Source: Rhodothermales bacterium (GTDB taxonomy: Bacteria; Bacteroidota; Rhodothermia; Rhodothermales; VXPQ01). Taken from it: a DNA stretch of 64,000 nt. The notes below the pieces were generated by a model. The model did not search any database, was not told where the DNA came from, and was given only the letters and a program-made list of their open reading frames with translations. Made by a program: the position numbers and the translations under genes. Position 1 is the first letter of the stretch; every line of letters begins with the position of its first letter. The stretch lies in contig OX638293.1 in NCBI GenBank assembly GCA_951812335.1, positions 2,523,175 to 2,587,174 of the forward strand, read 5' to 3'. Positions 17,853 to 57,654 of this stretch are shown here, one piece after another.

Positions 17853-18725
17853 TTATTGTTGCACCTCTGCCCTATACAGCTGCGGGGCAAGGGCAACATG
17901 CTGCTTGATACATCCTGGAAGCGAGAACATATGAGGATTGCGACTAAAAGAAAACAATCGATACAATGCATACTGCGAACCCCTTTCCTCCGAAAAAGCA
18001 ACTTCGTTCTGCGTAATTAAAAAGGGCTGATATATACCGCTATTGGTGGTTTTCACCTCAATAAAAAGTTCATTGTCCGTTTGACCATCAAACGAGCGAA
18101 TGTCATACCCCGCGCCATCGCCACGCTCCTTGCTTGTCCATTCTACGTCGGAAAGCAAATCGTCGCGCCCCAAATGTCTCAGGCGAAATTTTTCGTATTC
18201 CAGTGCAAATTCCTCTCCTCGTTCACCGAGTTGTCTGTTACGCGCTTCCCGCGCGGCGTAGTCGATACGGCGCGGTCGGGCAGTATACCCGAGAGCAGGC
18301 TCGGATACGATTCCTTTCTTTAGAGGTGTAATTTTCTTCTCTGGAGGAGCAACAAGAACCTCTTCAAAATTCGACTTGTCAAATAACATGCCCAACTCCT
18401 GATTCAGTATATCTTCTTGTTCAATCAGGTTGTTTCCTCCTATGGCCAGCCTGTCTACGACCACTTCCCGTAACATTCTTTGATAATTTTTAGCAGGGAG
18501 ATAACCTTGTATATAAACGTGGCCTTCTTCCAATAATATCGCGGATATATTTTGATGTTTAAATTCTATGGAACCTTCGGACCTGTTGTTCAACTTCTCT
18601 TGCAGAACTCGACGATGCTCCGCTTTACTAAAGGGCTCTCCACGACATTCGCGCGACAACATATCGATATAATCGGCAACGATCGCTTCACACTCCACCC
18701 TACTCCATGTATCACCTCGGGCCAT
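17853..18725 (-). CDS. DUF3883-type PD-(D/E)xK nuclease-fold protein with an N-terminal restriction-associated domain
   Basis: The C-terminal core is GYDIRSF...LFIEVKTT...FLITQNEV...YALYRLF (D...ExK...Q, DUF3883 pattern). The N-terminal W..VE...V.DY..M...RSEGSIEFKHQNISAIL...GYLPAKNYQ block is one I associate with the N-termini of stand-alone restriction-type nucleases. G+C is low: I counted 41 G+C in 18361-18460. Confidence 0.7.
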   Translation of the reverse strand: MARGDTWSRVECEAIVADYIDMLSRECRGEPFSKAEHRRVLQEKLNNRSEGSIEFKHQNISAILLEEGHVYIQGYLPAKNYQRMLREVVVDRLAIGGNNLIEQEDILNQELGMLFDKSNFEEVLVAPPEKKITPLKKGIVSEPALGYTARPRRIDYAAREARNRQLGERGEEFALEYEKFRLRHLGRDDLLSDVEWTSKERGDGAGYDIRSFDGQTDNELFIEVKTTNSGIYQPFLITQNEVAFSEERGSQYALYRLFSFSRNPHMFSLPGCIKQHVALAPQLYRAEVQQ

Positions 18726-18813
18726 CTATGAAGGTTTGGGAAGATTAAAAGGGCTTCCAGGGTACAGTTTACGGGCCAAGCAGAACACCCTGCACGGCAC
18801 TTGACCTACTTCC

Positions 18814-18843
18814 AGAATACGCCATCCGATATTGTCCTGTCAA
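18814..18843 (-). promoter_or_regulatory. possible sigma70-type promoter for the nuclease gene
   Basis: The minus strand reads TTGACA-N18-TATTCT. The -10 element ends about 88 nt upstream of the ATG at 18725. Confidence 0.3.
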
Positions 18844-19005
18844 GTAAAACCTGCCGGATTACACCCCGGATATAGCGTCTTGATTTTCTGCCCGCCGCCC
18901 CCATCGCAAACACCCCGGCCACACACCCCATAACCCCTTCACGAAATTTCCCTTTAATTCCTTGCATATCAAAGACTTGTGAACTTTCCGGGAATCTCCG
19001 AAAAG

Positions 19006-34763: not shown

Positions 34764-34906
34764 GTGGAAAGTCCGGATAAATCAGAGAAAACGGGGGAAA
34801 CAGGGAAAATGCTGAAAAGCAGGCAAAACAAAAAATCAGGGAAATTACAAAATGCGTGGAAAATAGAAAATGTCAAGGGGAACAATAAAGTGCGGGGAAA
34901 ACATCG

Positions 34907-36490: not shown

Positions 36491-36632
36491 CGTGGCGGAA
36501 CGAATCGGATCGCGCCCGGAAATCGGCGTCCGCAGGGTACGAGAAGACAGAAATTGCACCATAGCCATATGCAGAAAGGAGTCATCGCCCTAATGATACC
36601 GGCCGCAGAGCGTTTCGGCAAGGGGATCGCAC

Positions 36633-42909: not shown

Positions 42910-44376
42910 TTATTCCTCGATGCGGGCGTCAAGCTGGGTCGGATAGGGATCCAACCCGGCCCGATGCTCCGCCACACGCGCGGCAATCTCTTCCAGCACC
43001 TCCGGGTGCTCTGCGGACACGTCGAACCGCTCGGACGGATCGTGCTCCAGATGATTCAAAATAGGCGTGTCGTGAGACACAGGATCGTCCCCGATGTAGG
43101 CCCGCTGCGTGATGAAGTGCGCTTTCCAGGGCCCCACTCGCGCGGCATAAATGCGCGTACCCCGATAGTACAGGATCATGTCGTGAGCATCCTCGTCACT
43201 TCCCCGGAGGATATTTCCAATATCTATCCCGTCGATCGTGCGGTCGTCCGGAACCGGCACGCCCGCCATACCCAGCACCGTGGGAAACACATCCATTGCC
43301 GTCACGAGCGCCGAATTAACCGCCCCCGCCGGGACCGTGCCGGGCCACCATGCAAGCGCAGGCGACCGCATGCCTCCCTCGTAGGTGGTGCCCTTGCCGT
43401 CCCGCAAAAGCCCCGCCGAACCGCCATGCGTGCGGAAAATAAGCCAGGGACCGTTGTCGCTCGTGAAGAAAACGAGCGTGTTCTCCGCAATGCCCTCTTC
43501 TTCGAGCGTCTGCATGACCTGCCCTACGCTCCAGTCGATCTCTTCGATCACGTCTCCGTAGAGCCCCGCCTTGCTATGACCGGCAAACGCGGCGCTTCGG
43601 AAAAGCGGCGTGTGCGGCATGGTGTGCGCCAGATACAGGAAGAACGGCTCCCCGGCATGGTCGCGGATGAAGGCCACGGCCTCCTGCGCATACCGACGGG
43701 TAATCGTTTCCTGGTCAACCGGGCGCTCGATGACTTCCGTATCGCGCAGCAGCGGCACATTCCAGTATTCGGATTTGGGCTCCCAGAATATTTCCTGCCA
43801 TTCGCCGCCTGCCACGCGATCCATGTCGTTGGAATAGGGAATCCCGTACCAGGAATCGAAGCCGTGGTTTGTCGGCAAAAACGGTTCGAGATGGCCGAGA
43901 TGCCACTTCCCTACGATGCCCGTAGCGTACCCGGCGTCCCTGAGCGCTTCCGCGATCGTAATTTCGCGCGCCGGCAGGCCCAGTTTGGAATCCGGGAAAA
44001 GCACCCGGCGCCGGTCGCTGGCCATCCCGCTCCGGATCGGCAGACGCCCGGTCAACAGCGCGGCCCGGCTGGGCGTACATACCGAAGCGCCCACATAAAA
44101 CTGGGTGAACTTCATCCCTTCCGCCGCCATGCGGTCCAGATGGGGCGTGCGGATCGTGGGGTGCCCGTATACCCCGATATCGCCGTAGCCGAGGTCGTCC
44201 GCAAAAATCAGGACCACATTCGGAGGACGATCTTCCTGCGCCGCCGCCGGACGCGCGGAACATGCCGTCAGGCATAGGAAAAATGCAGTACAGGCCAGGC
44301 AGCGAATGGCAAGCGATCGGAATCGAAACGCGAAAAACGCCGGATGGCGCATTGCATCAGGCATCGAAGCGAACAT
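42910..44376 (-). CDS. arylsulfatase A-type sulfatase
   Basis: FADDLGYGD and CTPSRAALLTGR. The start is uncertain: candidate ATGs at 44376, 44364 or 44352, and the ORF opens at 44523. Confidence 0.88.
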   Translation of the reverse strand: MFASMPDAMRHPAFFAFRFRSLAIRCLACTAFFLCLTACSARPAAAQEDRPPNVVLIFADDLGYGDIGVYGHPTIRTPHLDRMAAEGMKFTQFYVGASVCTPSRAALLTGRLPIRSGMASDRRRVLFPDSKLGLPAREITIAEALRDAGYATGIVGKWHLGHLEPFLPTNHGFDSWYGIPYSNDMDRVAGGEWQEIFWEPKSEYWNVPLLRDTEVIERPVDQETITRRYAQEAVAFIRDHAGEPFFLYLAHTMPHTPLFRSAAFAGHSKAGLYGDVIEEIDWSVGQVMQTLEEEGIAENTLVFFTSDNGPWLIFRTHGGSAGLLRDGKGTTYEGGMRSPALAWWPGTVPAGAVNSALVTAMDVFPTVLGMAGVPVPDDRTIDGIDIGNILRGSDEDAHDMILYYRGTRIYAARVGPWKAHFITQRAYIGDDPVSHDTPILNHLEHDPSERFDVSAEHPEVLEEIAARVAEHRAGLDPYPTQLDARIEE

Positions 44377-44479
44377 GGAATCGGCGGAATATTGCTGCAA
44401 GAAAAATTTGAACGGAAGAATATGCTTCCAAGCCCATAGACTTGTGCATAAAATACATGCGGGACAAACGGATTTCGCC

Positions 44480-45139
44480 TTATCCCTCCTTTTTCGCTTC
44501 CGCAACGCTCCGGCACAGCACACGCGCGTTTTCCGTCAGTTTGCCGAAGTTACCTTCTGCGATGGCCTGCTTGTCCAGCAGGGAAGACCCTACGCCCACC
44601 GCCACGGCTCCGGCGCGAATCCAGTCGCCCGCATTCTCCGGGGATACGCCCCCGGTGGGCATCAACTTCAGGTGGGGCATGGGCGCCAGCACCGCCTTGA
44701 AATACGACATCCCCACCACGCCGGAAGGAAACACCTTGACCACATCGGCCCCGGCCTCGGTCGCTTCGAGAATCTCCGTGGGGGAGAAAGCGCCGGGCAT
44801 CGCGGGCACGCCCCGTTCGTGCGCGGCGTCTATGAGTTCCTTCTTGTACACCGGGCTCACCACATACCGCGCCCCCGCGTCGACCGCCCGGTGCACGCCC
44901 GCCGCATCCAGCACGGAACCCACCCCGATCTCGACGTCGCTCATACTCCCCGCCACCTCCGCGATCGCCTGCAAGGCGCCCGGGGTCGTCATGGTGATTT
45001 CAATGGCGGTAACCCCTCCTTCCCGGATAGCGTCCACGACGCGGAGCACATGCGCAGCGTCGGGCAAACGCACCACAGCCACCACGCCGGTGGCGAGAAT
45101 TCGCTTCAGAACCGCTTCGCGGCGATGTACGGCGGACAT
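44480..45139 (-). CDS. eda: 2-dehydro-3-deoxyphosphogluconate / 4-hydroxy-2-oxoglutarate aldolase
   Basis: Starts MSAVHRREAVL at 45139. Blocks VVAVVRL...AIEITMTTPGA and the Schiff-base region VVKVFPSG. The ORF-track frame runs on through the tandem repeat to 45367. Confidence 0.85.
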   Translation of the reverse strand: MSAVHRREAVLKRILATGVVAVVRLPDAAHVLRVVDAIREGGVTAIEITMTTPGALQAIAEVAGSMSDVEIGVGSVLDAAGVHRAVDAGARYVVSPVYKKELIDAAHERGVPAMPGAFSPTEILEATEAGADVVKVFPSGVVGMSYFKAVLAPMPHLKLMPTGGVSPENAGDWIRAGAVAVGVGSSLLDKQAIAEGNFGKLTENARVLCRSVAEAKKEG

Positions 45140-45406: not shown

Positions 45407-48400
45407 CTACGCCTGCAACCCCGGCGACAGAGCAACCTCGACCGTATCGATCGCTCCATCGCGGCGGAATATGCTTTCGCTGGAGGCAGGGTCGAGCGTC
45501 GATCCGTCCAGAATGCGGGGGGCGCCGTCCCGGTCTGTAATGTGGATACTTGCCTCCTCAGCCACGCGATAGAAGAAGGGCGTCTGGCAACAGGTGAAGG
45601 CCAGCATACCCGGCAGGAGTTCCAGCGTCCGAAGGCGCCCGCCTGTATCGTACCAGCGGAATTCGGCAGGGTGCGTAAGAAATTCGGAGCGGCGCAGCAG
45701 CGTGGGCCGGAAACGGATCTTGCCGTCCCGGATCATGACCCCCAGTTCCCCCCAGCGGCACAGGATATCTTCCTTCACCTGCCCTGTCATGCCCGGCTGT
45801 TGCGCACCCGCATGCGCCGGCGTATGCGAATACGGATCGGAGGGAAAGGCCCCGAATTGCTCCGGCGTTCTGTGCATGCCCAATCCCCCGCGAATAGCGT
45901 AGTACTGTTCGACCAGGGCTTGTTGCACCGCCATGTCCTCCCCGGCGTCCTCCGCAGCCCGAAAACATTCCAGCACCGCAAGCAACAACTTGGACACCAT
46001 GTGCCAGTACACGCTTCCCAGACCCTCGTATCCGAAGAACGTGCCGGAGCGCCCGGTGTACGAGCGGTGATCGAACACGTCCTCGAACAGGGCAAGCACC
46101 GCGTCCCCATCCTGTTCGACCGCCTCGGCGTACCCCTCCCGCCGTAAGGTTTCGAGCGCGGCTTTCACGGAGTCCGCGTTACGGAAGGCGCCGTTGAAAT
46201 GCCACCCCCCTTCCCCGTCCTGCACGATCAACCGGCGATCGCCTGCGTCGGCCAGCGTCCGAAGGAGCGCGATGTCCTCCACCCGACCGGCTTCGAACCG
46301 GTTTTTTTCGATAAACCGGGGCAACGTGCGATCGGGATACAGCAGATAGGTGTTCCGGCGCGGACAATACAGCGGCCCGTCCCTCAGCGTCGATAACACC
46401 TCGAGCGCCTCCCTGCCCGAAAGCGTTCCGGCGCTCAGCACAGCGACCTGCCCTTCCAGCATCGCGTACATAGACCGAAGCGCCACCGTTTTCGGAGACG
46501 TAACCGACATCAGGCTGTAGGCATGAAACAACCCGTCGGGGCGCCGGGCGGTCCGGATACTGTGTTCCGCAAACGCCGAAGCGCGCCCAAGCAATGTCAG
46601 CACCGCATCGCGGCGCACGGCCCGCACCTCGCCGGAAAATCCATCCTCGTATATCTTCCCGCGATACGCGCTCCCCGCTTCGCCCAGCGCGTCCATCACC
46701 GTCCTCCGGTCTTCGTCGGTCCAGACCCCGGCCGCAAGATGTTCGTGCCGGCCGAGCGCTTCGGAAATCGTATCCATGAAACCGGCTGCTTCTTCGGAAA
46801 GCTCGAGGGTTTCGTGCGGCAGACCGGCGAAGAGATCGGCGACAACATCCACGAAACGCCGTACGTAACACAGCGTAACCATGGACACGCCGTACCCCAC
46901 GAGCGCATTATTCGCGTCGTTCCACTCCGGTCGCTGCGTGTTCATCCAGACGCCGCCGCCGGGAATGAAGCCGGTTAGCCGGGCCAGCAGCGTCACCAGC
47001 AATTTTTCGCTCAGATTGACCAGATACACATCGCCGTCGGGACCCGGAACGAGCTTGCCATCCCCCCCGATCTCCGCAACGCGCCGGGTGGAGCGCGCCG
47101 CCGACTCGTCGTCGAAATCGATCGTTTCGTGGGGGTTTTCCAGCATCTCGCGATACGGTCGAATGCGGTACGGTACATCCGCGTAGGCGAATATCTTCCG
47201 CGCAAGAAATTCCTCCAGTCTGCCGGGGTGATGCGCGCGGGAGCATTCGAGCAGTTTAAGCAGATAGGCGACCTGGTGATCGCCCCAATACCCGATGTAT
47301 GACCAGGGATCGTTGGGATCGAGCACCTCCCAGTCGATGCCGTCTTGCGTCAGACGGTAGGGATTGTATCCGTCGGGGGTCGATGCATTGACGAACTTGC
47401 AGACCATGCTTTCGACATATTCCGGATACGAAAAGGCCAGCGCCTCCCAGTTCTGGAAAATATCCCTCCAGTTGCCCTCGTAGGCGATTTTTCGCGAGCC
47501 GTCCTCGTTGTGCGTATCGATGGCGAAGCGGTTCCACGGACGACTCGGATCGCCATGGCGGCGTCCAAACGTAAGCGGCAGGTACTCGTGGCACAGGCGC
47601 TCCATCTGCGGATCGTGCAGGGATTCTGCTTCCGCAAGCAAACGGTGGACCGGCATCCGGTCGGGGAGTCCGGCGATCCATGCCTCATGCCGGGCGGCCA
47701 CGGAACTGTTGCGGCGATGCAGAAAGGACGTCAGATCGAAACGGGATATCAGGCCGTTTCCGACGAACACCCCGCCCCGCATCACATTGAACATCACATG
47801 CGAGAAGTGCCTCGCCGCCATCATCGGCTCGGCGGTACGCTGCAACCCGTCCCCGCCGGCCACGAGGCGAGCCAGCCGCTCGCCCCCTTCCCGGACATCC
47901 TGTTCTATCAGCGAAACAATGTCTGCGCTTCCCCGGGAGGGGTCGTTCAGCATGGCCCGCAACGCCACCGCATCGTCCGGCCCCTGTTTGACATCGGCGA
48001 CGATATACCAGACATGCTCGGTATCGGGCGTCGCGTCGAATGAAGCTTGCACAAAAAAGCCCCCTTTTATACCCCGCACATCCTCTTCTTGTTCCACGAA
48101 CGCTCCCTGCCGGAAGCGGTCCAGCTGGGCCGAAGACAAGAGGTGCGCCTCGGCCTCCAGCCCCACCGACCATGCCGCCGTAGCCATGAGCGCCTCGCTC
48201 GGTTCGGGCTTATCCACCGGGATGGAACTCAATACGAACAGGGCCGGGCCCGCCGGGCCATACCATTCGCTCTTCTTGTAGGCGTCCACCAGGTTGCTGC
48301 GGTCGGCTTGCAGAACCTGGGGAACTCCGTAGGGCAGAATATTCCGGATCCCGTCAAGAACCCGCACCCTTGCCTGCCCGGAGCCGGTATTGCGGAGCGC

Positions 48401-48928
48401 CGACCGCTTGACGAAACCGAATCGCCGGCTGGTGGCCCAGGTATACGCGAAGACAAGCTGGAGGTCGCGATTGATTTCCTCGTAGCGAATCTTGTGTCCG
48501 TACAGGCTCTTGTACAGATTACGCTCGACGGCATACGCTCCCCGATACCGATCCGAAAACGGCTCCCACAGCGCGTGTCCGTCCTGCCGCTCCACCAGCA
48601 GGATCGTTTTCCCGCCCACCTGATCCTGCGCATCGTGGATCTTGTCGTCCGTGCAATAGGGAAAAAGCGCCTGCTCGGCGGTACCTCTGCCTGCCGTCAG
48701 GCCCCCATTGCTCGACGCAAACAGCCAGTGATCGCCATCGCTGACCATCGACATGAAGAAAGGAGGCAATCGGTCGCACCGTCCGATCTTGTAGAACGTC
48801 TCGCCGTCGAGTTCGACGAACGCACCGGTGACCGGGCCATCGATATCCCGCATGGGGACGGCTCCCGCAAAAACGGGGGACCCCGGCGGCGGAGCCGGGG
48901 GCTTACGACTCCCACGGGATGCACTCAC
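45407..48928 (-). CDS. 1173-aa conserved-looking protein of unknown function
   Basis: Single uninterrupted ORF. The GTG start lies 2 nt after the stop of the upstream glycoside hydrolase (an alternative ATG is at 48853). There is no signal peptide and no motif I can assign. The only weak hint is GNWRDIFQNWEAL / WGDHQVAYLLKLLE, which is reminiscent of (alpha/alpha)6-barrel carbohydrate enzymes. Confidence 0.7.
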   Translation of the reverse strand: MSASRGSRKPPAPPPGSPVFAGAVPMRDIDGPVTGAFVELDGETFYKIGRCDRLPPFFMSMVSDGDHWLFASSNGGLTAGRGTAEQALFPYCTDDKIHDAQDQVGGKTILLVERQDGHALWEPFSDRYRGAYAVERNLYKSLYGHKIRYEEINRDLQLVFAYTWATSRRFGFVKRSALRNTGSGQARVRVLDGIRNILPYGVPQVLQADRSNLVDAYKKSEWYGPAGPALFVLSSIPVDKPEPSEALMATAAWSVGLEAEAHLLSSAQLDRFRQGAFVEQEEDVRGIKGGFFVQASFDATPDTEHVWYIVADVKQGPDDAVALRAMLNDPSRGSADIVSLIEQDVREGGERLARLVAGGDGLQRTAEPMMAARHFSHVMFNVMRGGVFVGNGLISRFDLTSFLHRRNSSVAARHEAWIAGLPDRMPVHRLLAEAESLHDPQMERLCHEYLPLTFGRRHGDPSRPWNRFAIDTHNEDGSRKIAYEGNWRDIFQNWEALAFSYPEYVESMVCKFVNASTPDGYNPYRLTQDGIDWEVLDPNDPWSYIGYWGDHQVAYLLKLLECSRAHHPGRLEEFLARKIFAYADVPYRIRPYREMLENPHETIDFDDESAARSTRRVAEIGGDGKLVPGPDGDVYLVNLSEKLLVTLLARLTGFIPGGGVWMNTQRPEWNDANNALVGYGVSMVTLCYVRRFVDVVADLFAGLPHETLELSEEAAGFMDTISEALGRHEHLAAGVWTDEDRRTVMDALGEAGSAYRGKIYEDGFSGEVRAVRRDAVLTLLGRASAFAEHSIRTARRPDGLFHAYSLMSVTSPKTVALRSMYAMLEGQVAVLSAGTLSGREALEVLSTLRDGPLYCPRRNTYLLYPDRTLPRFIEKNRFEAGRVEDIALLRTLADAGDRRLIVQDGEGGWHFNGAFRNADSVKAALETLRREGYAEAVEQDGDAVLALFEDVFDHRSYTGRSGTFFGYEGLGSVYWHMVSKLLLAVLECFRAAEDAGEDMAVQQALVEQYYAIRGGLGMHRTPEQFGAFPSDPYSHTPAHAGAQQPGMTGQVKEDILCRWGELGVMIRDGKIRFRPTLLRRSEFLTHPAEFRWYDTGGRLRTLELLPGMLAFTCCQTPFFYRVAEEASIHITDRDGAPRILDGSTLDPASSESIFRRDGAIDTVEVALSPGLQA

Positions 48929-48930
48929 GA

Positions 48931-50271
48931 TTACGACTCGACGTAGAAAGGAATATTGGCGTGGGCAGCGTGCCCCTCGCCGTCATACACATAGATAAAG
49001 AGGCGGTACGCGCCTTCCTCGGCGGGCGCCGTCAGCGTGACCTCCGGGGTATCCATACGGTCCAGCACGTTCTCTATGTGTTCGGGAACCTCCTCGTCAT
49101 CGCCTCCCGTGCTCTGCACCGTGCTCTCGCGGCGCATCTCCCATTCGTACCGCAGCGCATCGCCGTCCGGATCGACGGACGAGACCGAGGCCGCGTACGA
49201 CTGTCCGGGACGAAGATAAATGCCTTCGTGGGCCTCTTTGCCGTCAAGCAGGGCCTGCTCCAGACGGGGACTCCGGTTCTCGGGCCACGCCCCGTTCCAT
49301 ACGTAATGCATTACGTCGACGGTTTCGGTCTCTTCCCCCGTAGGCAAAAACATGCCGTACCAGGTCGGCGTGCGCTCCTGCTTTTGCCCCCACAGAAAAA
49401 CATACGACCCCACACACTGGTCCCGCATGGATTCGATGACGGTCCGGTAGCGCCTCAGGTAATCGTCGGCCTTGACGGAACTGTTGTTTTCGAGGGGCGC
49501 GCCCCAGGGCGTGCTCGGAACCTCCCAATGGCCGGTAGCGCCCCACTCGGTAACCATGAACGGCCCGTCCCATCCGATTTCTTCGATGTACCGGGGCAGA
49601 TTTTCGATATCCGCGTACATCTGGATACTGAGCAGGTCCAGGTCGGGAGCCCGCATCTTTATGTCGTCGGCCAGCTCCTGCCAGATCCCCGCCAGCATGG
49701 TGGTGGTCAAGTGGTTGGGGTCGATCTCGTGAATCATTTCCGAGATTTCGTTGACGGCGTCCCAGACGCGGGGGTTGGTTGCGCCGAGGTTAAGTTCGTT
49801 GCCGATGCCCCAGACGATCAACGCCGGATGATCCTTGTACTGCATGACTTCGGCCCGAATCCGTTCGAGTTGCTCCGCCACAGCCTCTTCGTCGTCGTAG
49901 TCGAATCCGAAAAACCCCCGTCCTTCGCCCTCGCGCTCCCGAGCGATCTCCAGGCCCATCGTAACCACCAGACCCGCCTCATGGGCACGGCGCAACACCT
50001 CGTCGCCCGTATCGCGCCCGTTGTCCGTACGCCATGTTCTGAACGAATTGGCCCCGTTCTGCGCCAACCGCTCTATATCGCCGAACTCGAGACCTGCCCC
50101 GTGGATGTAAAAAGGCTCCCCGTCCTTGAGCAGTTCGTAGCGGCCGTCCACCTGCCGCAATTCCATCTTGACCGGCCCTTCGACGGAAGGGGTTTCCGCA
50201 CTCGACCGGCACCCCGAAAGAACAAGCGTGGAGAGTAAGAGGCCTGCGATGGGACCATACGATGATTTCAT
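48931..50271 (-). CDS. clan GH-A (beta/alpha)8 glycoside hydrolase lipoprotein with C-terminal beta-sandwich
   Basis: Lipobox LVLSGC. Acid/base block VWGIGNELN and nucleophile block FMVTEWG. Confidence 0.75.
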   Translation of the reverse strand: MKSSYGPIAGLLLSTLVLSGCRSSAETPSVEGPVKMELRQVDGRYELLKDGEPFYIHGAGLEFGDIERLAQNGANSFRTWRTDNGRDTGDEVLRRAHEAGLVVTMGLEIAREREGEGRGFFGFDYDDEEAVAEQLERIRAEVMQYKDHPALIVWGIGNELNLGATNPRVWDAVNEISEMIHEIDPNHLTTTMLAGIWQELADDIKMRAPDLDLLSIQMYADIENLPRYIEEIGWDGPFMVTEWGATGHWEVPSTPWGAPLENNSSVKADDYLRRYRTVIESMRDQCVGSYVFLWGQKQERTPTWYGMFLPTGEETETVDVMHYVWNGAWPENRSPRLEQALLDGKEAHEGIYLRPGQSYAASVSSVDPDGDALRYEWEMRRESTVQSTGGDDEEVPEHIENVLDRMDTPEVTLTAPAEEGAYRLFIYVYDGEGHAAHANIPFYVES

Positions 50272-50293
50272 GATGTGTTATACTCGAGAACGT

Positions 50294-50329
50294 GAAGCGC
50301 CGGGCGAAGTGGTTTTGATCAGAGTATCC
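50294..50329 (+). repeat. dispersed repeat, 36-nt version (GAAGCGCCGGGCGAAGTGGTTTTGATCAGAGTATCC)
   Basis: Lies between the MFS stop (50397) and the GH start (50271). It is antisense to both genes. Confidence 0.8.
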
Positions 50330-50396
50330 GATAGTTGCCGGGACGGCATGTATGTAGGGGGTACAGCGTCGATCCGCGTGGAGGCGCCGGAGACGA

Positions 50397-51953
50397 TCAT
50401 TTCACGAGTATTTTTTCCAGTTCCTCCAGCGATTTCCCTTTCGTTTCCGGCAGCACCGCCATGACGAAAACGAATCCGACGGCAGCGAACAGACCGTAAA
50501 TCAGGAACGTCGGGGCGCTGCCGATCTGGGATAATTCCCACGGAAACACGAGTTGCACCGTAAAACTCACGGCGGAGTTGATCAGGCCCACGAAGGAAAT
50601 AGCCAGACCGCGAATGCGGTTGGGGAACAGTTCGGAAAAGAGCACCCACATCACCGGTCCGATCGACACCGCGAAAAAGGCGACGAAGGCGAGGATGCCC
50701 GCCAGGATCAGCCCGGGGTTAATGTCGATAGCAGCCGTGACCAGCGTACTTTCGTGCTGTCGGGCGGCCTCCTCGCCAAGCGCATCGGCCACGGCAGCCT
50801 TGAAGGCCACGTCGGAATCGTACGTCCGATCGGCCATGGATTCGAGCGCAACGGTTGGAACCTCTTCCGGCAGCGAAGCAATAGCATCCGGGGTAAGGGT
50901 ATAACTCGCCTGGAAGAATCCGAACGCCAGCACCAGCATGGACACGGTGACGCCGCCCAGCCCGACGGCGAGCAGCGGCTTGCGCCCGAGGCGGTCGATG
51001 AGCAATATGGCCAGTACGGTAAAAACAAGATTGGTCAAGCCGACCAGAATGGCCTGCATGAACGACGCGTTCGTGCCGATGCCGGATTGCTCGAAGATCA
51101 TCGGCGCATAGAAGAACACCGCATTGATGCCGGTGATCTGCTGGATGACAGCCACGACGACGCCAATAAGCAGCACCAGGCGAAGGGCCGGAGCGAACAA
51201 CTCGCGCAGGGGCGCTTTTACCTTGCCGGCGTCACTGGCGATGCTCGCTTTTACGGCTTGAATCTCCTCGTCCGCGCGTCCCTCGCCGCTGGCCCGAATC
51301 ATGATGGGCCGCGCCAGCGCCTCCCGTCCCCGCATGATCAGCCAGCGAGGACTTTCCGGCACGAAGAAGAGGCACGAGAAGTAGAGCACGGCGGGAAGCG
51401 TTTCCAGACCCAGCATCCAGCGCCAGTTCCAGGGGCCGAAGCGAAGCGCCTCCGCCCATGCCATGTCCGATTGCCCCAACAGCAGTACGAGGTAATTCGT
51501 AAAGAACGCCACCGAGATGCCGATCACGATATTCAATTGATTGAACGACACCAGCTTCCCCCGCACGGCCGGAGGCGAAATCTCGGCGATATACATCGGC
51601 GCAATGATGAGCGAGGCCCCTACCCCGAACCCTCCGATCATGCGGGCCGCCACCAGAAACCAGAAAGAAGGCGCCAGCGCGGAAGCGATCGCCGACACGG
51701 CATACAGTACGGCGGCGAAAAACAGCACCCGCCGACGCCCGAGGGCATCGCTCAGCGGGCCGGCCACCATCATGGCCAGGGTGGCCGTAAGGGTCAACGA
51801 ACTGACCGCCCAGCCGAGCTCCAGTTTGGTCAGGGTAAACTGCGTCTCGATGAATCCGACAACGCCGGATATGACCGAGGCGTCGAAGCCCATCAGAAAG
51901 CCCCCGAGGGCCACGATCAGGGCGGTACGGGTTATGTAGCTTCGATCAGGCAC
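50397..51953 (-). CDS. MFS sugar porter family transporter (sugar:H+ symporter)
   Basis: 518 aa with the signatures DALGRRRVL, PESPRWL and PETKGKSLEE. Confidence 0.9.
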   Translation of the reverse strand: MPDRSYITRTALIVALGGFLMGFDASVISGVVGFIETQFTLTKLELGWAVSSLTLTATLAMMVAGPLSDALGRRRVLFFAAVLYAVSAIASALAPSFWFLVAARMIGGFGVGASLIIAPMYIAEISPPAVRGKLVSFNQLNIVIGISVAFFTNYLVLLLGQSDMAWAEALRFGPWNWRWMLGLETLPAVLYFSCLFFVPESPRWLIMRGREALARPIMIRASGEGRADEEIQAVKASIASDAGKVKAPLRELFAPALRLVLLIGVVVAVIQQITGINAVFFYAPMIFEQSGIGTNASFMQAILVGLTNLVFTVLAILLIDRLGRKPLLAVGLGGVTVSMLVLAFGFFQASYTLTPDAIASLPEEVPTVALESMADRTYDSDVAFKAAVADALGEEAARQHESTLVTAAIDINPGLILAGILAFVAFFAVSIGPVMWVLFSELFPNRIRGLAISFVGLINSAVSFTVQLVFPWELSQIGSAPTFLIYGLFAAVGFVFVMAVLPETKGKSLEELEKILVK

Positions 51954-52044
51954 GGCATATACATATTCAACGTTTGGGAATCCCTAACATATCTCCCTTT
52001 GCGGCGGTATACAAATTTCTCGTCGGATGCACCGAAAAAAGAGG
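51632..52044. repeat. 413-bp direct repeat, copy A (5' 322 nt of the MFS gene plus 91 nt upstream)
   Basis: Base-by-base comparison with 54555-54967 gives 410/413 identical, at an offset of 2923 bp. Confidence 0.95.
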
Positions 52045-52788
52045 AATTACCGGGTTAACTTGACGGATCCTTGATCCAGCCCGTATGTTCCGTTTATGGA
52101 ATCTACCTAGACAAATCATGCAGCGTCGCGGCGGTCGTATCTTCGACGACCTCGGCCTTGATCTTGCCGGTCGCCCGATCTTTTGCGCCAACGACTGCCG
52201 TCTTGCCTACGACGCCCCTGCCTGCGTGCAGCTTTTTTGACTCGTGCTTGTTCGCTTCTTTGCCGCCGACGAACGTCTCGTCCACCTCTACCGGGCCGCC
52301 GAAGAGATTGTCTTCTCCGGCGTCGAACGCCTTGCGAATCCGTTGGAGCAGATGCCACGCGCTGCTCTGGTGAATATCTATGTCCCGTGCAATCTTCGTG
52401 CTCGATACGCCTTTCAGGCTCGTCATGTGCAGGTAGATGGCGTATACCCACTTGCGCAGCGGAAGCCGCGAGGCTTCCATGACCGTGCCAACCCTGACGC
52501 TGAAATACTTCCGGCAATCGGTGCACCAGTAGGGCATAGGCTTTGCAGCCTTCACCTCGCGGGTGCGGGTGCTCTTGCAGCGCGGGCAATGGCGCCCGTC
52601 GGGCCAGATGCGGGATTCGAACCACCGCCGGGCCGCTTCCTCGTCGGGAAACATCTCGGCCAACTGCATTACGGATATGCCGTTTCGATGTGTTCTGTGA
52701 GCCATGTTTTTGATCTCTCTATATTCGTTATAACTATCTGTAAATATAGGAACTTACATCAAAAATATCAAGTTAACCCGGTAATTCC
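52043..52788 (-). mobile_element. internally deleted IS1595-family element (746 bp) with perfect 21-bp terminal inverted repeats
   Basis: GGAATTACCGGGTTAACTTGA at 52043-52063 and its exact reverse complement at 52768-52788. The element encloses a truncated transposase. The flanking 8-mers differ, so there is no target-site duplication. Confidence 0.85.
52103..52705 (-). pseudogene. IS1595-family transposase, N-terminal 200 aa only (Zn-ribbon plus start of ISXO2-like domain)
   Basis: CPRC...C..C zinc ribbon, LPLRKWVYAIYL, and VEVDETFVGGKEANKH. The ORF ends at ...TLHDLSR, with only a short out-of-frame FHKRNIR remnant of the C-terminus before the IR. The DDE core is missing. Confidence 0.8.
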
Positions 52789-52835
52789 TTTTTCAGATAA
52801 TTTCACTTCCTTTTCATTTTTTTTGCGCCAGGGTC

Positions 52836-52864
52836 TTGACATTGCCGGATCGCCTCCTTACATT
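52836..52864 (+). promoter_or_regulatory. sigma70-type promoter-like element facing the cargo ORFs
   Basis: TTGACA (52836-41), a 17-nt spacer, then TACATT (52859-64). A direct ACATTGCC repeat spans both elements. Confidence 0.4.
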
Positions 52865-52928
52865 GCCATCCGGTGTGAGGATTTCCATAAATCCGGTTTT
52901 TGTACAACTTGCTTTTGGGGGGATTGCG

Positions 52929-53168
52929 ATGACTCATTTCTTACATACCTGCTGGGATTTTGCTAATACGCATTACTTCCTTGATCGGCCTCTCTCCTTC
53001 TATATTAAGGTCATTGTTCCTTTTATTCTTTTTATGTTGTTTTATGATACTGTTCATGCACAACAAAGGGGGCATCCTTGTAATCGAGCTTTTTCGAGTT
53101 ATAATGAAGCAAATTGTCGAAACTGCTTTGGGTCTTCAAGATTGGCAAGCTACCCCGAATATTTATAG
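52929..53168 (+). CDS. alternative small ORF (79 aa) with hydrophobic segment; may be a frame artefact of T-rich DNA
   Basis: ATG preceded by GGGGG. It encodes ...IKVIVPFILFMLFYDTVHA-QQRGHPCNRAF..., and overlaps the next ORF by 65 nt in another frame. Confidence 0.2.
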   Translation: MTHFLHTCWDFANTHYFLDRPLSFYIKVIVPFILFMLFYDTVHAQQRGHPCNRAFSSYNEANCRNCFGSSRLASYPEYL

Positions 53169-53478
53169 AAATTGGGACCCTTGGCTTGGAGGTTGGGGCT
53201 ATGGTTATGGTACGCCTGATCCTTGTTATCAGGATGCCGGGATGACTCGTCTTATTGGGGCTGGTGGTATAGTTGGAGGTTATGGAGCTAATTCGCCTTT
53301 AACTTCATTTTTTGGTGCTGTAACGTTTTATCAGGGAATTCGACAACATAATAATTGCTATGGTACTTCTGAGGATAATTGGAATTTCTTCGGATGGGGA
53401 CGTGGTTCTGATAACGACCCATCATCTTATTGTTCAGCTAGAGAAAGTCACTGTGATGATGGTGATCGTCGTGAATAA
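53104..53478 (+). CDS. Gly/Trp/Tyr-rich four-cysteine small protein (124 aa), unknown function
   Basis: MKQIVETALGLQDWQATPNIYRNWDPWLGGWGYGYGTPDPCYQDAGMTRLIGAGGIVGGYGANSPL...NNCYG...SYCSARESHCDDGDRRE. The ORF opens at a TTG at 52960, which would add a hydrophobic N-terminal helix. G+C is below that of the core genes. Confidence 0.4.
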   Translation: MKQIVETALGLQDWQATPNIYRNWDPWLGGWGYGYGTPDPCYQDAGMTRLIGAGGIVGGYGANSPLTSFFGAVTFYQGIRQHNNCYGTSEDNWNFFGWGRGSDNDPSSYCSARESHCDDGDRRE

Positions 53479-53549
53479 ACGATATGCTCTCGTGTGATTT
53501 ACAAGTTTTTTGTATCTCATCTTGAATTGAACGCTAGAGTATATCATTG

Positions 53550-54090
53550 GGAATTACTTGGCAAAGCCGCGTGGTATCCGAGCCAGCGCGTACGCGGGGC
53601 ATCTGTGTTTGTCGGTACGATTGAGATTGACGAATACCTACATGGGCGGTAAGGAAGCAAATAAGCACCGAAACAAGGAATCTTTCGCTTGACGCGGTAC
53701 AGCGAGCAAGGTGGCCGTCATGGGTGCAAAGCAGCAGGCTGGCGAGATCGTTTCCTGCCCTTATAGATTGGGGGCCAGAAGAGACGCTGGCCGGGTTCGC
53801 GCTCTAAATCCGGCCTAGCCCGGCGAAACAGTTTACACAGACGATCACAGAGCATACCGGAACCTGCGACATACATTCCGGGTCAGAATTTTTTTAAGCC
53901 ATACCCCTCAAGCGTGGATACAAGGACACGTTGCATAAAATCGGGCGGAAGCACCCCGACGGCTATGTCAACGAGATTGCCGGACGGCACAATATCCGGG
54001 GCTTCGATACACTGGACCAGATGGCTGCTATCGTGCGGGGCATGGACCAAAAACGTCCTCGGTACACCGTATCGCAGGATCCGTATACAG
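53550..54090 (+). pseudogene. decayed IS1595-family transposase (5'-truncated, frameshifted, internally deleted)
   Basis: Piecewise frames read ...AAWYPSQRVRGA..GTIEIDEY / MGGKEANKHRNKE / RGTASKVAVMGAKQQAGEI / PEETLAGFAL* / LKRGYKDTLHKIGRKHPDGYVNEIAGRHNIRGFDTLDQMAAIVRGM. These pieces are colinear with IS1595 transposases but are broken by stops. Confidence 0.7.
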
Positions 54091-54127
54091 GTAAAATGAC
54101 AAAGCCGAATAACTATGGTGCTCTATC

Positions 54128-54439
54128 ATGTCCTTGACTAAAATAAACTATATTGCATGGAGTCTTATCCTGATTCCTTGTTTGCAATTTGCATATAATA
54201 TAATTCATTATGTTAATCTTGGAGCTCCAGTAAGTGCTATCATTGTACCTGCTGTTAGCGGTTTTGTCACAAATTTTTTGTTATTTTTCTTTCTTGGACG
54301 TTTCATTGTACAAACGGCTATCAATAAGCGCATACTCCGTAGACTTGATGAATTGAATCGTGCTTCTGCGCCTCCGGGCTATCCGGAAACTCTTGAGGAA
54401 CTGGACTCTCAACCGGGCGCACGCTCGGGCGATTCTTGA
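54128..54439 (+). CDS. small two-TM membrane protein (103 aa), unknown function
   Basis: Helices INYIAWSLILIPCLQFAYNIIHYV and VSAIIVPAVSGFVTNFLLFFFLGRFIV, followed by a charged tail. This is the most AT-rich gene in the window. Confidence 0.45.
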   Translation: MSLTKINYIAWSLILIPCLQFAYNIIHYVNLGAPVSAIIVPAVSGFVTNFLLFFFLGRFIVQTAINKRILRRLDELNRASAPPGYPETLEELDSQPGARSGDS

Positions 54440-54554
54440 GTCATTCCCTGCATTTGCCTTCGCGCTGGCGCGAGCGAGAGCACGTTCCCGGGCCGGCTGC
54501 CCCAGTGCGATCTTGGTGGCCCGTGCACCTGGCTATCGTTGCACACCCTATCCT

Positions 54555-54876
54555 CTCCGATCATGCGGGCCGCCACCAGAAACCAGAAAGAAGGCGCCAG
54601 CGCGGAAGCAACCGCCGACACGGCATACAGTACGGCGGCGAAAAACAGCACCCGCCGACGCCCGAGGGCATCGCTCAGCGGGCCGGCCACCATCATGGCC
54701 AGTGTGGCCGTAAGGGTCAACGAACTGACCGCCCAGCCGAGCTCCAGTTTGGTCAGGGTAAACTGCGTCTCGATGAATCCGACAACGCCGGATATGACCG
54801 AGGCGTCGAAGCCCATCAGAAAGCCCCCGAGGGCCACGATCAGGGCGGTACGGGTTATGTAGCTTCGATCAGGCAC
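54555..54876 (-). pseudogene. duplicated 5' fragment of the MFS sugar porter (first 107 codons)
   Basis: Identical to the MFS N-terminus except for I->V (ATC->GTT) and one synonymous change. The frame then runs into unrelated sequence (…ARMIGEDRVCNDSQ...). Confidence 0.9.
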
Positions 54877-54967
54877 GGCATATACATATTCAACGTTTGG
54901 GAATCCCTAACATATCTCCCTTTGCGGCGGTATACAAATTTCTCGTCGGATGCACCGAAAAAAGAGG
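54555..54967. repeat. 413-bp direct repeat, copy B (adjacent to valS)
   Basis: See copy A. Beyond 54967 the sequence continues into the valS 3' end. Below 54555 it continues into foreign sequence. Confidence 0.95.
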
Positions 54968-54981
54968 GGGTAAGCCCCAAC

Positions 54982-57654
54982 TTATCCCAGCTGTTCGAGA
55001 TTCCTGCGCAGCCGGGCAATATCCGCAGCGGCGTCCTGTTCCTTTCTGCGTTCCCGTTCCACTACCTCGGGCCGTGCTCTCGTAACGAACTGTTCGTTCT
55101 GCAATTTCCGGCGCACGCTGCCGAGAAAACGTTCCTTTTGCGTGACTTCCTTCTGCAGGCGCTCGCGTTCCACATCAAGATCGATGATCCCCGCCAGCGG
55201 AACGAACGCCTCGCACGGACCGGCCACATGGGAAGCGGCGCCGGCCGGACGCGCCAGATCGCTGCCCACGGTCAGGGTATGCACGCGGGCCAGCTTGCGG
55301 AAATAGTCCCCGTGCGCCGCCAACGACGCGCCAATCGCTTCCGCATCGGGAGAAACATGCACCAGCGCCTCGATCTCCGCACCGGGCGCCACCCTGTATT
55401 CGCTTCGGACGGTGCGAATGCCGGACACCACATCCTGTATCAGGTTGAACGTGGCGGCAGCGTCGCGGTCCATCAGGGAAAGGTCCTGCTCAGGCCAGGG
55501 CGCCGTCATACAGCAGGCTCCCTCCTCCCGGGGCTGCAACTGCGCCCACAACTCCTCGGTGATGAACGGCATGAACGGGTGCAGCAGCCGGAGCATCGCA
55601 TCGTAGAGTTCGATGGCGAGCGCCAGCGTTTCCTCGTCCGGCTCCTCGCCCGGCGCCGGCTTGATCAGTTCGAGATACCAGTCGCAGTAATCCTTCCAAA
55701 AAAGATCGTATATCCGGCCCAATGCCTCGTTGAGGCGATAACGCGCCAACGCCTCGTTCACCTCCCCGATCCCGGCGTGCAGCCGGTGCATCATCCACCG
55801 TTCCACCAGTTCCAGTTCCTCGAAAGAGCGCGTCCGGCGGTACGTTTTCCCTGACTCGATGAACCGCCCGAACACCTTGAACGCATTCCATATCTTGTTC
55901 GCAAAATTGCGGCCCATCTCGAATTTCGTCGGGTCCAGCCGGATGTCCTGCCCCTGGGCGCACAAGATGACCAACGAGAAGCGGACGGCGTCGGCGCCGT
56001 ACCGGTCGATCATGTCCAGCGGATCGATGCCGTTTCCGAGGCTTTTCGACATCCAGCGCCCCTGCTTGTCCTTGATCATCCCCGTAATGAAGATATCGCT
56101 GTAGGGCGGCTCGCCCATGAAGCGGCATCCCGCCATGATCATGCGGGCGATCCAGAAGAAAAGAATGTCGTACCCGGATACGAGCACCTGCGTGGGGTAG
56201 AAACAGGCAAGGTCTTCCGTCTGCTCCGGCCATCCCAGGGTGGCGAACGGCCACAACCACGACGAAAACCAAGTGTCGAGCACATCCTCGTCCTGCACCA
56301 TGCCGGGAGCGGGCCGATCCACCGAAACGACATACCCGCGCCGTTCGTCGATCCTGCCGTCCTCGCCGGTATGGTACCAGACAGGAATGCGGTGTCCCCA
56401 CCAGAGTTGCCGCGAGATGGTCCAGTCCCGGATGTTTTCCATCCACCGGAAGTACTCGTTCTCCCAGCGCTTCGGGTGAAACGCGACCTTGCCCGCGCGA
56501 ACCGCCTCGATGGCCGGTTCGGCCAGCGGCGTCATCTTCACGAACCACTGCCGGGAAACAAGGGGTTCGACAACCGCCCTGGACCGGCTCGACACAGGGA
56601 TCGTGCCTTTCATGGGCTCCGTCTTGACAAGGAGCCCTTCTTTTTCGAGATCCGCCACGATGCGGTCGCGGGCGGCAAAGCGATCCATCCCCTCGTACGG
56701 TCCCCCCTGCTCGTTGATCGCGCCGTCGGGCCGGATCACATTAAGGACCTCGAGGCCGTGCCGCCGCCCGATCTCGAAATCGTTCCGGTCGTGGCCGGGC
56801 GTCACCTTCAGCGCCCCGCCGCCGAAATCCATCTTGACATACTCGTCCGCAATCACCGGAATTTCCCGACCCGCAAGCGGAAGCACCACCTTCTTCCCGA
56901 TCAGGTCGGTATAACGCGGATCGTCGGGATGTACGGCGACCGCCGTATCCCCCAGCATGGTTTCCGGGCGGGTCGTGGCGATCGTAATCGCGCCGGAACC
57001 GTCCGCCAGCGGATAATCGATATACCACAGGTGTCCTTCCCGCTCCACATTGTCCACTTCCTCGTCGGACAGCGCCGTCCGGTTTTCCGGATCCCAGTTG
57101 ACCAGGTAATCCCCCCGATAGACCAGCCCTTCTTCATACAGACGCACGAATACTTCCTGCACCGCTCGCGTGAAGCCCTCGTCCATCGTAAACCGCTCTC
57201 TGCTCCAGTCGCACGAGTCTCCGAGGCGGCGTTTCTGTTCCAGAATCCTGCCGCCGTATTCGCGCTTCCACGCCCAAACGCGTTCGACGAAACGCTCGCG
57301 GCCCAGATCATGGCGGGTCTTGCCCGCTTGGGCCAGCTGCTGCTCCACGACGTTCTGCGTGGCGATACCGGCATGATCCATTCCCGGCATCCAGAGCGCC
57401 TCGTAGCCCTGCATGCGCCGGAGGCGCGTCACGGCGTCCTGAATGGCGTCCTGCAGCGCATGCCCCATATGCAGCGCGCCGGTCACATTGGGAGGCGGCA
57501 TGACAATGACATGCGGAGGCTTGCCGGAATGCGGCCGGACTCGAAAGAGGTCGTTCTTTTCCCACCAGGCATACCATTTGGCTTCGATCTCGGCCGGGCG
57601 ATACGCCGTACTGCGGTCGACTTGCTCCTTGCGGGACGTTTCCTTCGTAGACAT
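54982..57654 (-). CDS. valS: valine--tRNA ligase
   Basis: 890 aa. Class I HIGH-type motif (GALHMGHA), KMSKS-type motif (WMSKSLGN), and a C-terminal coiled coil. Confidence 0.97.
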   Translation of the reverse strand: MSTKETSRKEQVDRSTAYRPAEIEAKWYAWWEKNDLFRVRPHSGKPPHVIVMPPPNVTGALHMGHALQDAIQDAVTRLRRMQGYEALWMPGMDHAGIATQNVVEQQLAQAGKTRHDLGRERFVERVWAWKREYGGRILEQKRRLGDSCDWSRERFTMDEGFTRAVQEVFVRLYEEGLVYRGDYLVNWDPENRTALSDEEVDNVEREGHLWYIDYPLADGSGAITIATTRPETMLGDTAVAVHPDDPRYTDLIGKKVVLPLAGREIPVIADEYVKMDFGGGALKVTPGHDRNDFEIGRRHGLEVLNVIRPDGAINEQGGPYEGMDRFAARDRIVADLEKEGLLVKTEPMKGTIPVSSRSRAVVEPLVSRQWFVKMTPLAEPAIEAVRAGKVAFHPKRWENEYFRWMENIRDWTISRQLWWGHRIPVWYHTGEDGRIDERRGYVVSVDRPAPGMVQDEDVLDTWFSSWLWPFATLGWPEQTEDLACFYPTQVLVSGYDILFFWIARMIMAGCRFMGEPPYSDIFITGMIKDKQGRWMSKSLGNGIDPLDMIDRYGADAVRFSLVILCAQGQDIRLDPTKFEMGRNFANKIWNAFKVFGRFIESGKTYRRTRSFEELELVERWMMHRLHAGIGEVNEALARYRLNEALGRIYDLFWKDYCDWYLELIKPAPGEEPDEETLALAIELYDAMLRLLHPFMPFITEELWAQLQPREEGACCMTAPWPEQDLSLMDRDAAATFNLIQDVVSGIRTVRSEYRVAPGAEIEALVHVSPDAEAIGASLAAHGDYFRKLARVHTLTVGSDLARPAGAASHVAGPCEAFVPLAGIIDLDVERERLQKEVTQKERFLGSVRRKLQNEQFVTRARPEVVERERRKEQDAAADIARLRRNLEQLG

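Follow-up and report, generated by a model that had tools for sequence, protein, structure and literature searches.

The stretch of DNA analysed here (hereafter the window) comprises 64,000 nucleotides of a Rhodothermales bacterium (assembly GCA_951812335.1, contig OX638293.1, positions 2,523,175 to 2,587,174 of the forward strand). The subject of this analysis is an insert of about 2.5 kb (52045-54553), located between valS and a gene for a major facilitator superfamily (MFS) sugar transporter in a chromosome with a guanine-plus-cytosine (GC) content of about 60%. From left to right the insert consists of a remnant of an insertion sequence (IS-A), a first low-GC segment (approximately 52790-53550, 38-44% GC) that holds a promoter-like motif and a small orphan gene, the remnant of another insertion sequence (IS-B), a second low-GC segment that holds an open reading frame (ORF) for 103 aa, and 114 bp of GC-rich DNA (Table 1). 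An earlier note on this locus had proposed that the two small ORFs might encode a bacteriocin-like toxin and its immunity protein. In the window the small gene is interrupted by a frameshift, the ORF on which this proposal was built is the out-of-frame 3′ portion of that gene, and the gene itself is probably a pseudogene here.

The ORF singled out by the earlier note (53104-53478, 124 aa) does exist, but it is only the 3′ fragment of a longer gene, the start of which is ATG 52929 in another frame. A search of 5.8 billion protein clusters with this ORF returned no more than two relatives. Three alleles of the gene were compared: allele A, which is that of the window; allele B, present on contigs L002 and L004 of separately assembled samples (protein P0004 on L004); and allele C, present on L001, a 1978-bp metagenome contig that covers the same locus at 95.8% identity and extends from IS-A into an MFS transporter fragment. 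The ENA samples behind L001, L002 and L004 are ERZ23495298, ERZ23495240 and ERZ23495265, respectively. Allele C (L001 223-774) is intact and encodes a protein of 183 aa (P0001), which starts at the equivalent of ATG 52929, reads MTHFLHTCW...VIFFSSLLILCYNTVHA|QDKRGHPCNRAFSSYNEANCRVALRLQDWQATPNIY... and runs on into the 124-aa ORF. Both P0001 on L001 and P0004 on L004 are continuous through ...NEANCRVALRLQDWQATP..., while around 53120 the window has CGAAACTGC where alleles B and C have CGAGTTGC. This net gain of one nucleotide is a complex change of approximately three edits and not a simple homopolymer slip. The frame from 52929 runs in the window to ...NEANCR, then falls out of register and ends at TAG 53166-53168. 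Because of the extra base at about 53120, ATG 53104 is an internal, out-of-frame methionine of the gene.

Within 52929-53119, only the frame from 52929 carries the codon signature of the gene, with T at 59% of the third positions compared to 32% in the other frames, and the ratio of non-synonymous to synonymous rates between alleles (dN/dS, omega) is 0.45 in this frame versus 1.34 and 0.91 in the others. Because the intact allele is continuous and in view of the third-position T and the omega of 0.45, the 52929 frame is regarded as the historical coding frame. TTG 52960, which had been suggested as a possible alternative start, was rejected, as the frame in question has no third-position T bias, shows the omega of 1.34 and is open in all alleles owing to its base composition. 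In the window allele a 172-aa ORF from this TTG is formally possible. This second frame (+1 relative to ATG 52929) is open across 52932-53125 in all alleles and would encode a hydrophobic peptide (..SLFLLFFLCCFMILFM..); since the codon bias of the gene is absent there, we take it as an effect of base composition.

The motif TTGACA-N17-TACATT, previously described as a near-consensus promoter element, is present 65 nt upstream of ATG 52929 (TTGACA at 52836-52841, TACATT at 52859-52864) and matches the sigma-70 consensus at 10 of 12 positions; the promoter type of the host may differ. The motif alone is not significant, however, as a promoter scan returned 6 such sites in 2.1 kb compared to 3.0 +/- 2.1 in shuffles. 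Both hexamers are identical in L001 and L004, and L004 shows one spacer difference, at 52857.

Both ORFs carry a codon signature that is foreign to this chromosome. In the small gene the GC contents at the first, second and third codon positions (GC1/2/3) are 0.48/0.48/0.25 (chi-square 9e-7), T occupies 57% of the third positions (T3), and the open frame of 183 codons in DNA of 41% GC exceeds 99.9% of Markov shuffles (p ~0.001). For the 103-aa ORF the corresponding values are a GC1/2/3 of 0.50/0.41/0.31 (p = 0.018), a T3 of 47% and a p of ~0.02 for the length of the open frame in Markov shuffles, whereas host genes have a GC3 of 0.65-0.78. Because of this low-GC, T-ending codon periodicity, we conclude that both ORFs appear to be, or to have been, genuine genes of one foreign, low-GC donor, the case being weaker for the 103-aa ORF. 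The latter shows the two hydrophobic segments that had led to its description as a protein with two transmembrane (TM) segments, and the ORF and all DNA around it are identical (100%) in L001 and in a further contig of the locus (L003, ENA sample ERZ6126430). Its codon signature makes it probable that the ORF is genuine and was acquired together with the small gene; no link between the two could be demonstrated. The description of the cargo as AT-richer than its surroundings also holds, with 38-44% GC in 52750-53650 and 54100-54400 versus 58-66% in the neighbouring genes, and the presence of such DNA, with its foreign codon signature, among remnants of insertion sequences agrees with the view of the earlier note that this is IS-associated cargo.

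Table 1. Features of the insert and its immediate chromosomal neighbours (positions are those of the window).
Feature	Position	Strand	Basis or remark
MFS sugar transporter gene, full length	50397-51953	minus	Pfam Sugar_tr 2e-106
Left copy of 414-bp direct duplication of host DNA	51631-52044		adjoins full-length MFS gene
IS-A, internally deleted non-autonomous IS1595-family element	52043-52788	minus	inverted repeats and truncated transposase ORF
Sigma-70-like promoter motif TTGACA-N17-TACATT	52836-52864	plus	consensus scan
Small orphan gene, frameshifted in the window	52929-53478	plus	intact 183-aa allele P0001 on L001
Part encoding the predicted signal peptide, 44 codons	52929-53060	plus	hydropathy
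ORF of the earlier note, 124 aa	53104-53478	plus	out-of-frame 3′ portion of the small gene
Frameshift site	53119-53123	plus	alignment with alleles B and C
IS-B, dead remnant of a second, different IS1595-family transposase	53566-54137	plus	tblastn, three-frame translation
103-aa orphan ORF, two hydrophobic segments (~6-29, 31-66), charged C-terminal tail	54128-54439	plus	hydropathy
GC-rich DNA, 114 bp	54440-54553		between the 103-aa ORF and the right duplication copy
Right copy of 414-bp duplication	54554-54967		adjoins valS; holds truncated MFS 5′ fragment
valS	54982-57654	minus	adjoins the right duplication copy

According to its predicted signal peptide, the main product would ancestrally have been an exported small protein. 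The 44-residue signal peptide has a hydrophobic core at approximately residues 21-44, the only part of the protein with a Kyte-Doolittle 17-residue mean of 2.1-2.3, and then V-H-A before Q45 in all alleles. The core stays hydrophobic through 12.5 non-synonymous changes between alleles (omega ~0.45). By this hydropathy heuristic the N-terminal hydrophobic core and the small residues at -3 and -1 that are expected for Sec export and signal peptidase I (SPase I) are both present, and a signal peptide of this type, with cleavage at VHA|Q, is heuristically predicted. The predicted cleavage site (window 53058-53063) leaves an N-terminal Gln in every allele. Gln at +1 corresponds to the Q-rule of Bacteroidetes, which applies to most SPase I substrates there (PMC5837995), and may be taken as a weak hint at a Bacteroidota-type low-GC donor.

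The mature part of the intact protein (~139 aa) is rich in Gly, Trp, Tyr, Asn and Asp and contains six Cys, which probably form three disulfides. The 124-aa ORF lacks the signal peptide and the first two of these Cys, so that the four spaced Cys reported earlier are correct for that ORF but not for the full mature protein. The small-residue-rich stretch, RLIGAGGIVGGYGANSPLTSFFGAVTFYQGI in the window and RLIGAAGIVAGARINSPSTVVLGVLGFYHGI in L001, lies below the threshold of a classical TM segment (Kyte-Doolittle 17-residue mean <1.4). Of the part described earlier as glycine-zipper-like, LIGAGGIVGGYGANSPL is present, a single GxxxG is common to both alleles (GIVGG in one, GIVAG in the other) and no glycine-zipper family was matched. 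AlphaFold2 models reached a mean predicted local distance difference test (pLDDT) score of 42 for the 183-aa protein (5-row alignment) and 34 for the 124-aa ORF (single sequence), which is too poor for fold searches; the low-confidence model suggests a hairpin of two helices (99-120 and 124-145). A lipoprotein was rejected, as there is no [LVI][ASTG][GAS]C lipobox (LILC occurs in the intact allele, and the window allele has no Cys there). The glycine-zipper outer-membrane lipoproteins (SlyB/PCP; Gly-zipper, Rick_17kDa_Anti) were likewise rejected, with no Pfam match at E up to 10 and no lipobox. The intact product would be a periplasmic or envelope protein, and membrane association or oligomerisation would be its most plausible biochemical property.

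No homologue of either ORF was found outside the locus among the 5.8 billion clusters, and for P0001 an exhaustive phmmer search of 1.84 billion representatives brought up nothing beyond fragments of this gene. The small gene gave no match in GTDB genomes, JGI metagenomes, IMG/VR, plasmids or phages, the 103-aa ORF gave none in JGI metagenomes, IMG/VR, plasmids or phages, and neither ORF matched Pfam or NCBIfam (both at E up to 10), PHROGs, PADLOC or PDB sequences. Both are orphans, present at this locus in closely related strains and nowhere else in the collections searched. That no homologue had been recognised by the earlier note agrees with this, as every homologue found is the same locus in a close strain. 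The note had also stated that its proposal would fall if neither ORF were conserved in any other genome, and this is essentially what was found: the only homologues are those at the same locus in related strains.

Both flanking elements belong to the IS1595 family, as judged by their zinc-ribbon and DDE_Tnp_IS1595 domains. The transposase ORF of IS-A (52103-52705) is truncated to 200 aa; it matches NF033547 (transpos_IS1595, 9e-27) over positions 1-127 of 215 only, as well as PF12760 (zinc ribbon, 2e-7) and PF12762 (DDE_Tnp_IS1595, 2e-11). The element is bounded by terminal inverted repeats with arms at 52038-52063 and 52768-52793 (26 nt, 96% complementary), of which a 21-mer occurs in 2 exact copies compared to 0 in shuffles, and it lacks a target-site duplication of 8 bp, with no direct repeat formed by AAAAAAGA and TTTTTCAG at its flanks. 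IS-B covers the region from approximately residue 115 to the C-terminus (the C-terminal two-thirds) of its transposase, spread over three frames and interrupted by stops, and shares 36-50% protein identity with IS-A over the overlap (tblastn and three-frame translation). The dead transposase mentioned in the earlier note is this IS1595-type remnant with its several frameshifts and stops, and the finding of a second IS1595 fragment, IS-A, confirms that the cargo lies among IS remnants.

An intact transposase together with inverted terminal repeats and a target duplication of 8 bp is found in neither remnant: the C-terminal catalytic part is missing from IS-A, and IS-B is a frameshifted fragment without the N-terminus. 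A composite transposon was rejected because the two remnants, both defective and only 36-50% identical, are not copies of one element. The homology of IS-B stops near 54090. Its relatives, which carry PF12762, align with no more than the first 67% of the C-terminal query, and one of nearly full length (in L085) terminates 10 aa past ...DQKRLRY. The possibility that the 103-aa ORF lies inside IS-B was also rejected, since the sole likeness to the ends of IS-A is that of GGAATTAC (53551) and GTCATTCC (54441), an 8-mer resemblance that is not significant (31 of 500 shuffles reached the alignment score). All database relatives of the IS-B C-terminus (P0006-P0017) are short fragments of 45-138 aa, and the one near-full-length copy that was inspected (L085 3276-4216) carries a frameshift as well; most of what is left of this IS1595 lineage thus seems to be remnants. 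In L003, the dead IS-B remnant contains a 16-nt insertion near window 53598.

The insert is flanked by a direct duplication of host DNA, the two copies of which differ by 3 mismatches (offset comparison). The duplicated segment corresponds to the first 323 nt of the MFS gene and its upstream intergenic region. The host is a member of the Rhodothermales, its closest GTDB representative by ValS (185,579 species representatives) being the Rhodothermales metagenome-assembled genome L005, with 87% identity. In this closest relative valS is directly followed by the MFS gene and the insert is absent, which represents the empty site. The layout, in which host DNA encloses the insert and each duplication copy stands beside its natural neighbour (host-insert-host), is the topology of a single-crossover integration by a circle with host homology. 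The duplication could thus fit such an event and not an ordinary transposition. The 114 bp of GC-rich DNA match only the same locus in L001 and L003, and a search of Rfam with 51800-55100 gave no match. The strains of L001 and L003 carry a further deletion of about 250 bp in the duplicated MFS fragment (window 54627-54875), between two ACGGCATA microhomologies, which is placed at about 1918 in L001 and about 1056 in L003.

Two of the three alleles are disrupted. Allele A carries the +1 frameshift described above, and allele B carries a 2-nt deletion (53159-53160), a change of TGG to TGA at 53184 and a Cys-to-Tyr replacement near the C-terminus, and was found in this form in both of the separately assembled samples. 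From its distinct lesions, allele B appears to have been broken independently of the window allele. These two alleles diverge by 3.3% within the coding sequence, compared to 4.4% upstream of it. This divergence is regarded as neutral because the ratio of non-synonymous to synonymous changes (11:3) equals the ratio of the respective sites (dN/dS 1.0). Between the window and allele C, the overall dN/dS is 1.07, with ~0.44 for the signal peptide and 1.8 for the mature domain. Positive selection on the latter was rejected, as its value is not significantly above 1 (Fisher 0.22).

The bacteriocin proposal had pointed to a WLGG|WGYGYG junction as a possible double-glycine processing site, and this junction is indeed present 30 residues from ATG 53104. 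In the repaired precursor, however, GG occupies residues 73-74, where it follows the predicted signal peptide (Sec type, 44 residues) and some 30 residues of the mature part, two Cys included, and the intact allele has GT instead (WLGTMVFGYG). Double-glycine leaders of microcins are ~15-30 residues long, end in GG or GA and form the start of the precursor (PMC9746304). The site in question is neither N-terminal nor conserved and was rejected; it appeared to be one because the wrong start was read. Class II microcin systems are defined by this N-terminal signal together with an ATP-binding cassette (ABC) transporter of the C39-peptidase type, a membrane fusion protein and a gene for immunity (PMC9746304). 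In the 64-kb window, neither a C39-peptidase ABC exporter nor an ABC transporter of any other kind was found by Pfam scans of large ORFs (those between 42.9 and 63.9 kb, plus others) or by a search of the six-frame translation for LSGGQ, the sole occurrence of which is antisense to a gene for a TonB-dependent receptor. The earlier remark that no dedicated exporter is present was therefore correct, whereas the likeness to Gly-rich class II bacteriocins and microcins is not borne out, with no family match, the GG site refuted and no exporter in 64 kb.

As for the pairing of the two ORFs, the two-helix 103-aa ORF starts 650 bp downstream of the small gene, past the dead transposase remnant. In the window, the product of the 124-aa ORF would not be exported even if translated, because the extra base parts the signal peptide from the mature domain. 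The toxin/immunity idea seems weakened by these results, though not disproved; no finding made here supports it, and what would speak for it is composition and gene size. A putatively exported small protein with a short small-residue stretch, and a small membrane protein beyond an IS remnant, would be compatible with a Sec-dependent pair but do not constitute evidence for one.

Overall, we favour the reading of the locus as a decaying, horizontally acquired islet in which the small gene is probably a pseudogene in the window, and we assign to it a probability of about 0.68. Low-GC DNA from a donor with T-ending codons, possibly Bacteroidota-like, would have arrived in association with IS1595 elements and become fixed between valS and the transporter gene. 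Later inactivation would have affected both IS copies as well as the small gene, the latter in at least two of the three haplotypes (omega ~1). Several observations weigh against this reading. The extra base in the window may have arisen in sequencing or assembly; allele C is intact, with a constrained signal peptide (omega ~0.45) and all six Cys kept, and the small gene may still be functional in part of the population. Export and cleavage are heuristically predicted, and a signal-anchor topology is possible as well, the n-region being unusually long (27 residues). The differences between the window and allele C affect 61 of 553 coding columns compared to 24 of 1365 flanking columns (~7-fold, Fisher 6e-17) and are strongly clumped within the gene (bin-variance permutation 0/5000). 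Between 52957 and 53360 they form four dense patches, located at 53009-53046 (signal-peptide core), 53120-53133, 53191-53201 and 53264-53342 (hairpin), with a density of up to ~40% over 38 bp, and the blocks in between are unchanged even at synonymous sites. The last 118 bp of the gene (C-terminal) are almost identical in the two alleles and represent its least variable part. Such clumping would not be predicted by uniform neutral decay. It could come from patchy conversion with an unseen divergent copy, from multi-nucleotide mutation events or from chimeric assembly of the metagenome. A target of a diversity-generating retroelement was rejected, as neither a template repeat nor a reverse transcriptase was found in the window and the C-terminal 118 bp are the least variable.

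The same pattern might instead be that of a gene that is intact and in use, with the frameshift a sequencing error and the product a variable envelope or surface protein under diversifying selection (for example as a target of phages or other antagonists) and subject to patchy conversion from unseen divergent copies. The clumped patches with unchanged blocks between them, the purifying selection on the signal peptide and the conservation of the Cys in alleles A and C would all fit this account. However, the change in the window is multi-nucleotide and not an error of homopolymer length, the 2-nt deletion and the nonsense codon of allele B recur in two independently assembled samples, no second or template copy of the variable region was found within the 64 kb and no donor copy in the databases searched, and the divergence between the window and allele B is uniform and neutral-looking, so that we consider it unlikely. 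Another account, in which at least one of the small ORFs is no gene but a frame left open by chance in foreign, T-rich DNA, would explain that both are orphans, that the second frame is open across 52932-53125 in all alleles and that the length of the 103-aa ORF is marginal (p ~0.02). The plus strand is T-rich, with an AT skew down to -0.33, and T-rich sequence translates to hydrophobic, membrane-like peptides. We regard this account as very improbable in view of the 183-codon open frame in 41% GC DNA (p ~0.001), the periodicity of the small gene (chi-square 1e-6), its T3 of 57-59% in the coding frame only, the omega of 0.45 in the signal peptide and the same T3 bias in the 103-aa ORF (47%, p = 0.018).

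A further account is that of a functional or recently functional antagonism module, with a Gly-zipper-like, disulfide-bonded protein as Sec-dependent, membrane-active, bacteriocin-like toxin, the 103-aa protein as immunity factor and an IS remnant inserted between them later. The hypervariability of the hairpin and the repeated inactivation would then reflect diversification of the toxin and the cost of its carriage. The two ORFs share one foreign codon signature and could have arrived together, the protein has a predicted signal peptide and a small-residue hairpin in which both alleles keep a GxxxG and where variation is concentrated, loss of function occurs in two independent alleles, and the 103-aa ORF resembles CdzI (PMC5380434) or the immunity proteins of class II microcins (PMC9746304) in size and topology. 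Against this, neither a toxin nor a bacteriocin or immunity match was found in Pfam, NCBIfam, PHROGs, PADLOC or PDB, the double-glycine site is refuted and there is no exporter in 64 kb. The genes stand ~650 bp apart with an IS remnant between them and in their present layout form no operon, the hairpin falls short of the hydrophobicity of a classical TM segment, the dN/dS of 1.8 in the mature part is not significantly >1 (Fisher 0.22), and the two-TM ORF is invariant and hence uninformative on selection. Such a module is, in our view, improbable. More doubtful still is the wider idea that the intact pair would represent an unseen family of Sec-exported, disulfide-stabilised, glycine-zipper-like toxins with a two-helix immunity partner, which would stem from a low-GC Bacteroidota-type donor, diversify its hairpin by patchy conversion and be repeatedly inactivated.

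The main value of the favoured reading, a decaying acquired islet, is a corrected annotation: what was called a bacteriocin from its composition is the 3′ end of an orphan gene that carries a frameshift. Biologically the case is ordinary, with low-GC DNA of foreign origin that was captured between IS1595 remnants and decays in a GC-rich chromosome. The two independent inactivations of one orphan gene for a putative exported protein, together with the clumped differences, may be of population-level interest. If the intact allele were toxic when exported, it would represent a new Sec-dependent antagonism protein of Rhodothermales or Bacteroidota.

Elsewhere, the window is ordinary chromosome, in which Pfam scans identified gyrA, thrA, aroC, htrA, sulfatases, a hydrolase similar to glycoside hydrolase family 2 (GH2), a TonB-dependent receptor and a glycosyltransferase. 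Three sulfatases, the GH2-like hydrolase, the sugar transporter and the TonB-dependent receptor are located at 32991-36568, 42910-44523, 48931-51953 and 14284-16608, a gene content which suggests that the host degrades sulfated polysaccharides. A second low-GC island (~17000-19000, 47-51% GC compared to ~60%) was observed just upstream of gyrA, with an ORF (17853-18725, minus strand, 290 aa) that carries a NOV_C domain (PF13020, 1.7e-21). A 1173-aa ORF (45407-48928, minus strand) had no Pfam match at 1e-5.

Some subgroups of the IS1595 family carry passenger genes (ISfinder). The two remnants described here resemble this family in the zinc-ribbon and DDE signatures of both and in the inverted repeats of IS-A, but differ from it in that both copies are defective and show no target-site duplication. 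Among antagonism systems, enterocin P and lactococcin 972, class II bacteriocins of Gram-positive bacteria, are exported by the Sec route and have a small immunity gene downstream. The small gene shares with them a predicted, ordinary N-terminal signal peptide and the lack of a dedicated transporter. It differs from them in host and envelope and shows no similarity in sequence, and the candidate immunity gene is not adjacent.

Compared to the class II microcins MccV and MccL (PMC9746304), the predicted leader is of Sec type, neither a peptidase-containing ABC transporter nor a membrane fusion protein was found in 64 kb, and the mature protein is larger (~139 aa, six Cys) and has no sequence similarity to them. 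The likeness consists in a small, Gly-rich, Cys-containing, putatively secreted protein with a membrane ORF nearby, in horizontally acquired DNA. The contact-dependent Cdz bacteriocins of Caulobacter are proteins of about 5-10 kDa with extended GxxxGxxxG repeats uninterrupted by Pro or Cys, and are exported by an adjacent type I secretion system, encoded within 10 kb (PMC5380434). In the present case no such secretion system was found within that distance, the alleles share a single GxxxG, the stretch is broken by NSP and flanked by Cys, and the protein, with its six Cys, is about double that size. With CdzC/CdzD and CdzI (PMC5380434) the locus nevertheless shares a small-residue stretch with GxxxG, a small TM protein as candidate partner, and its position in a genomic islet.

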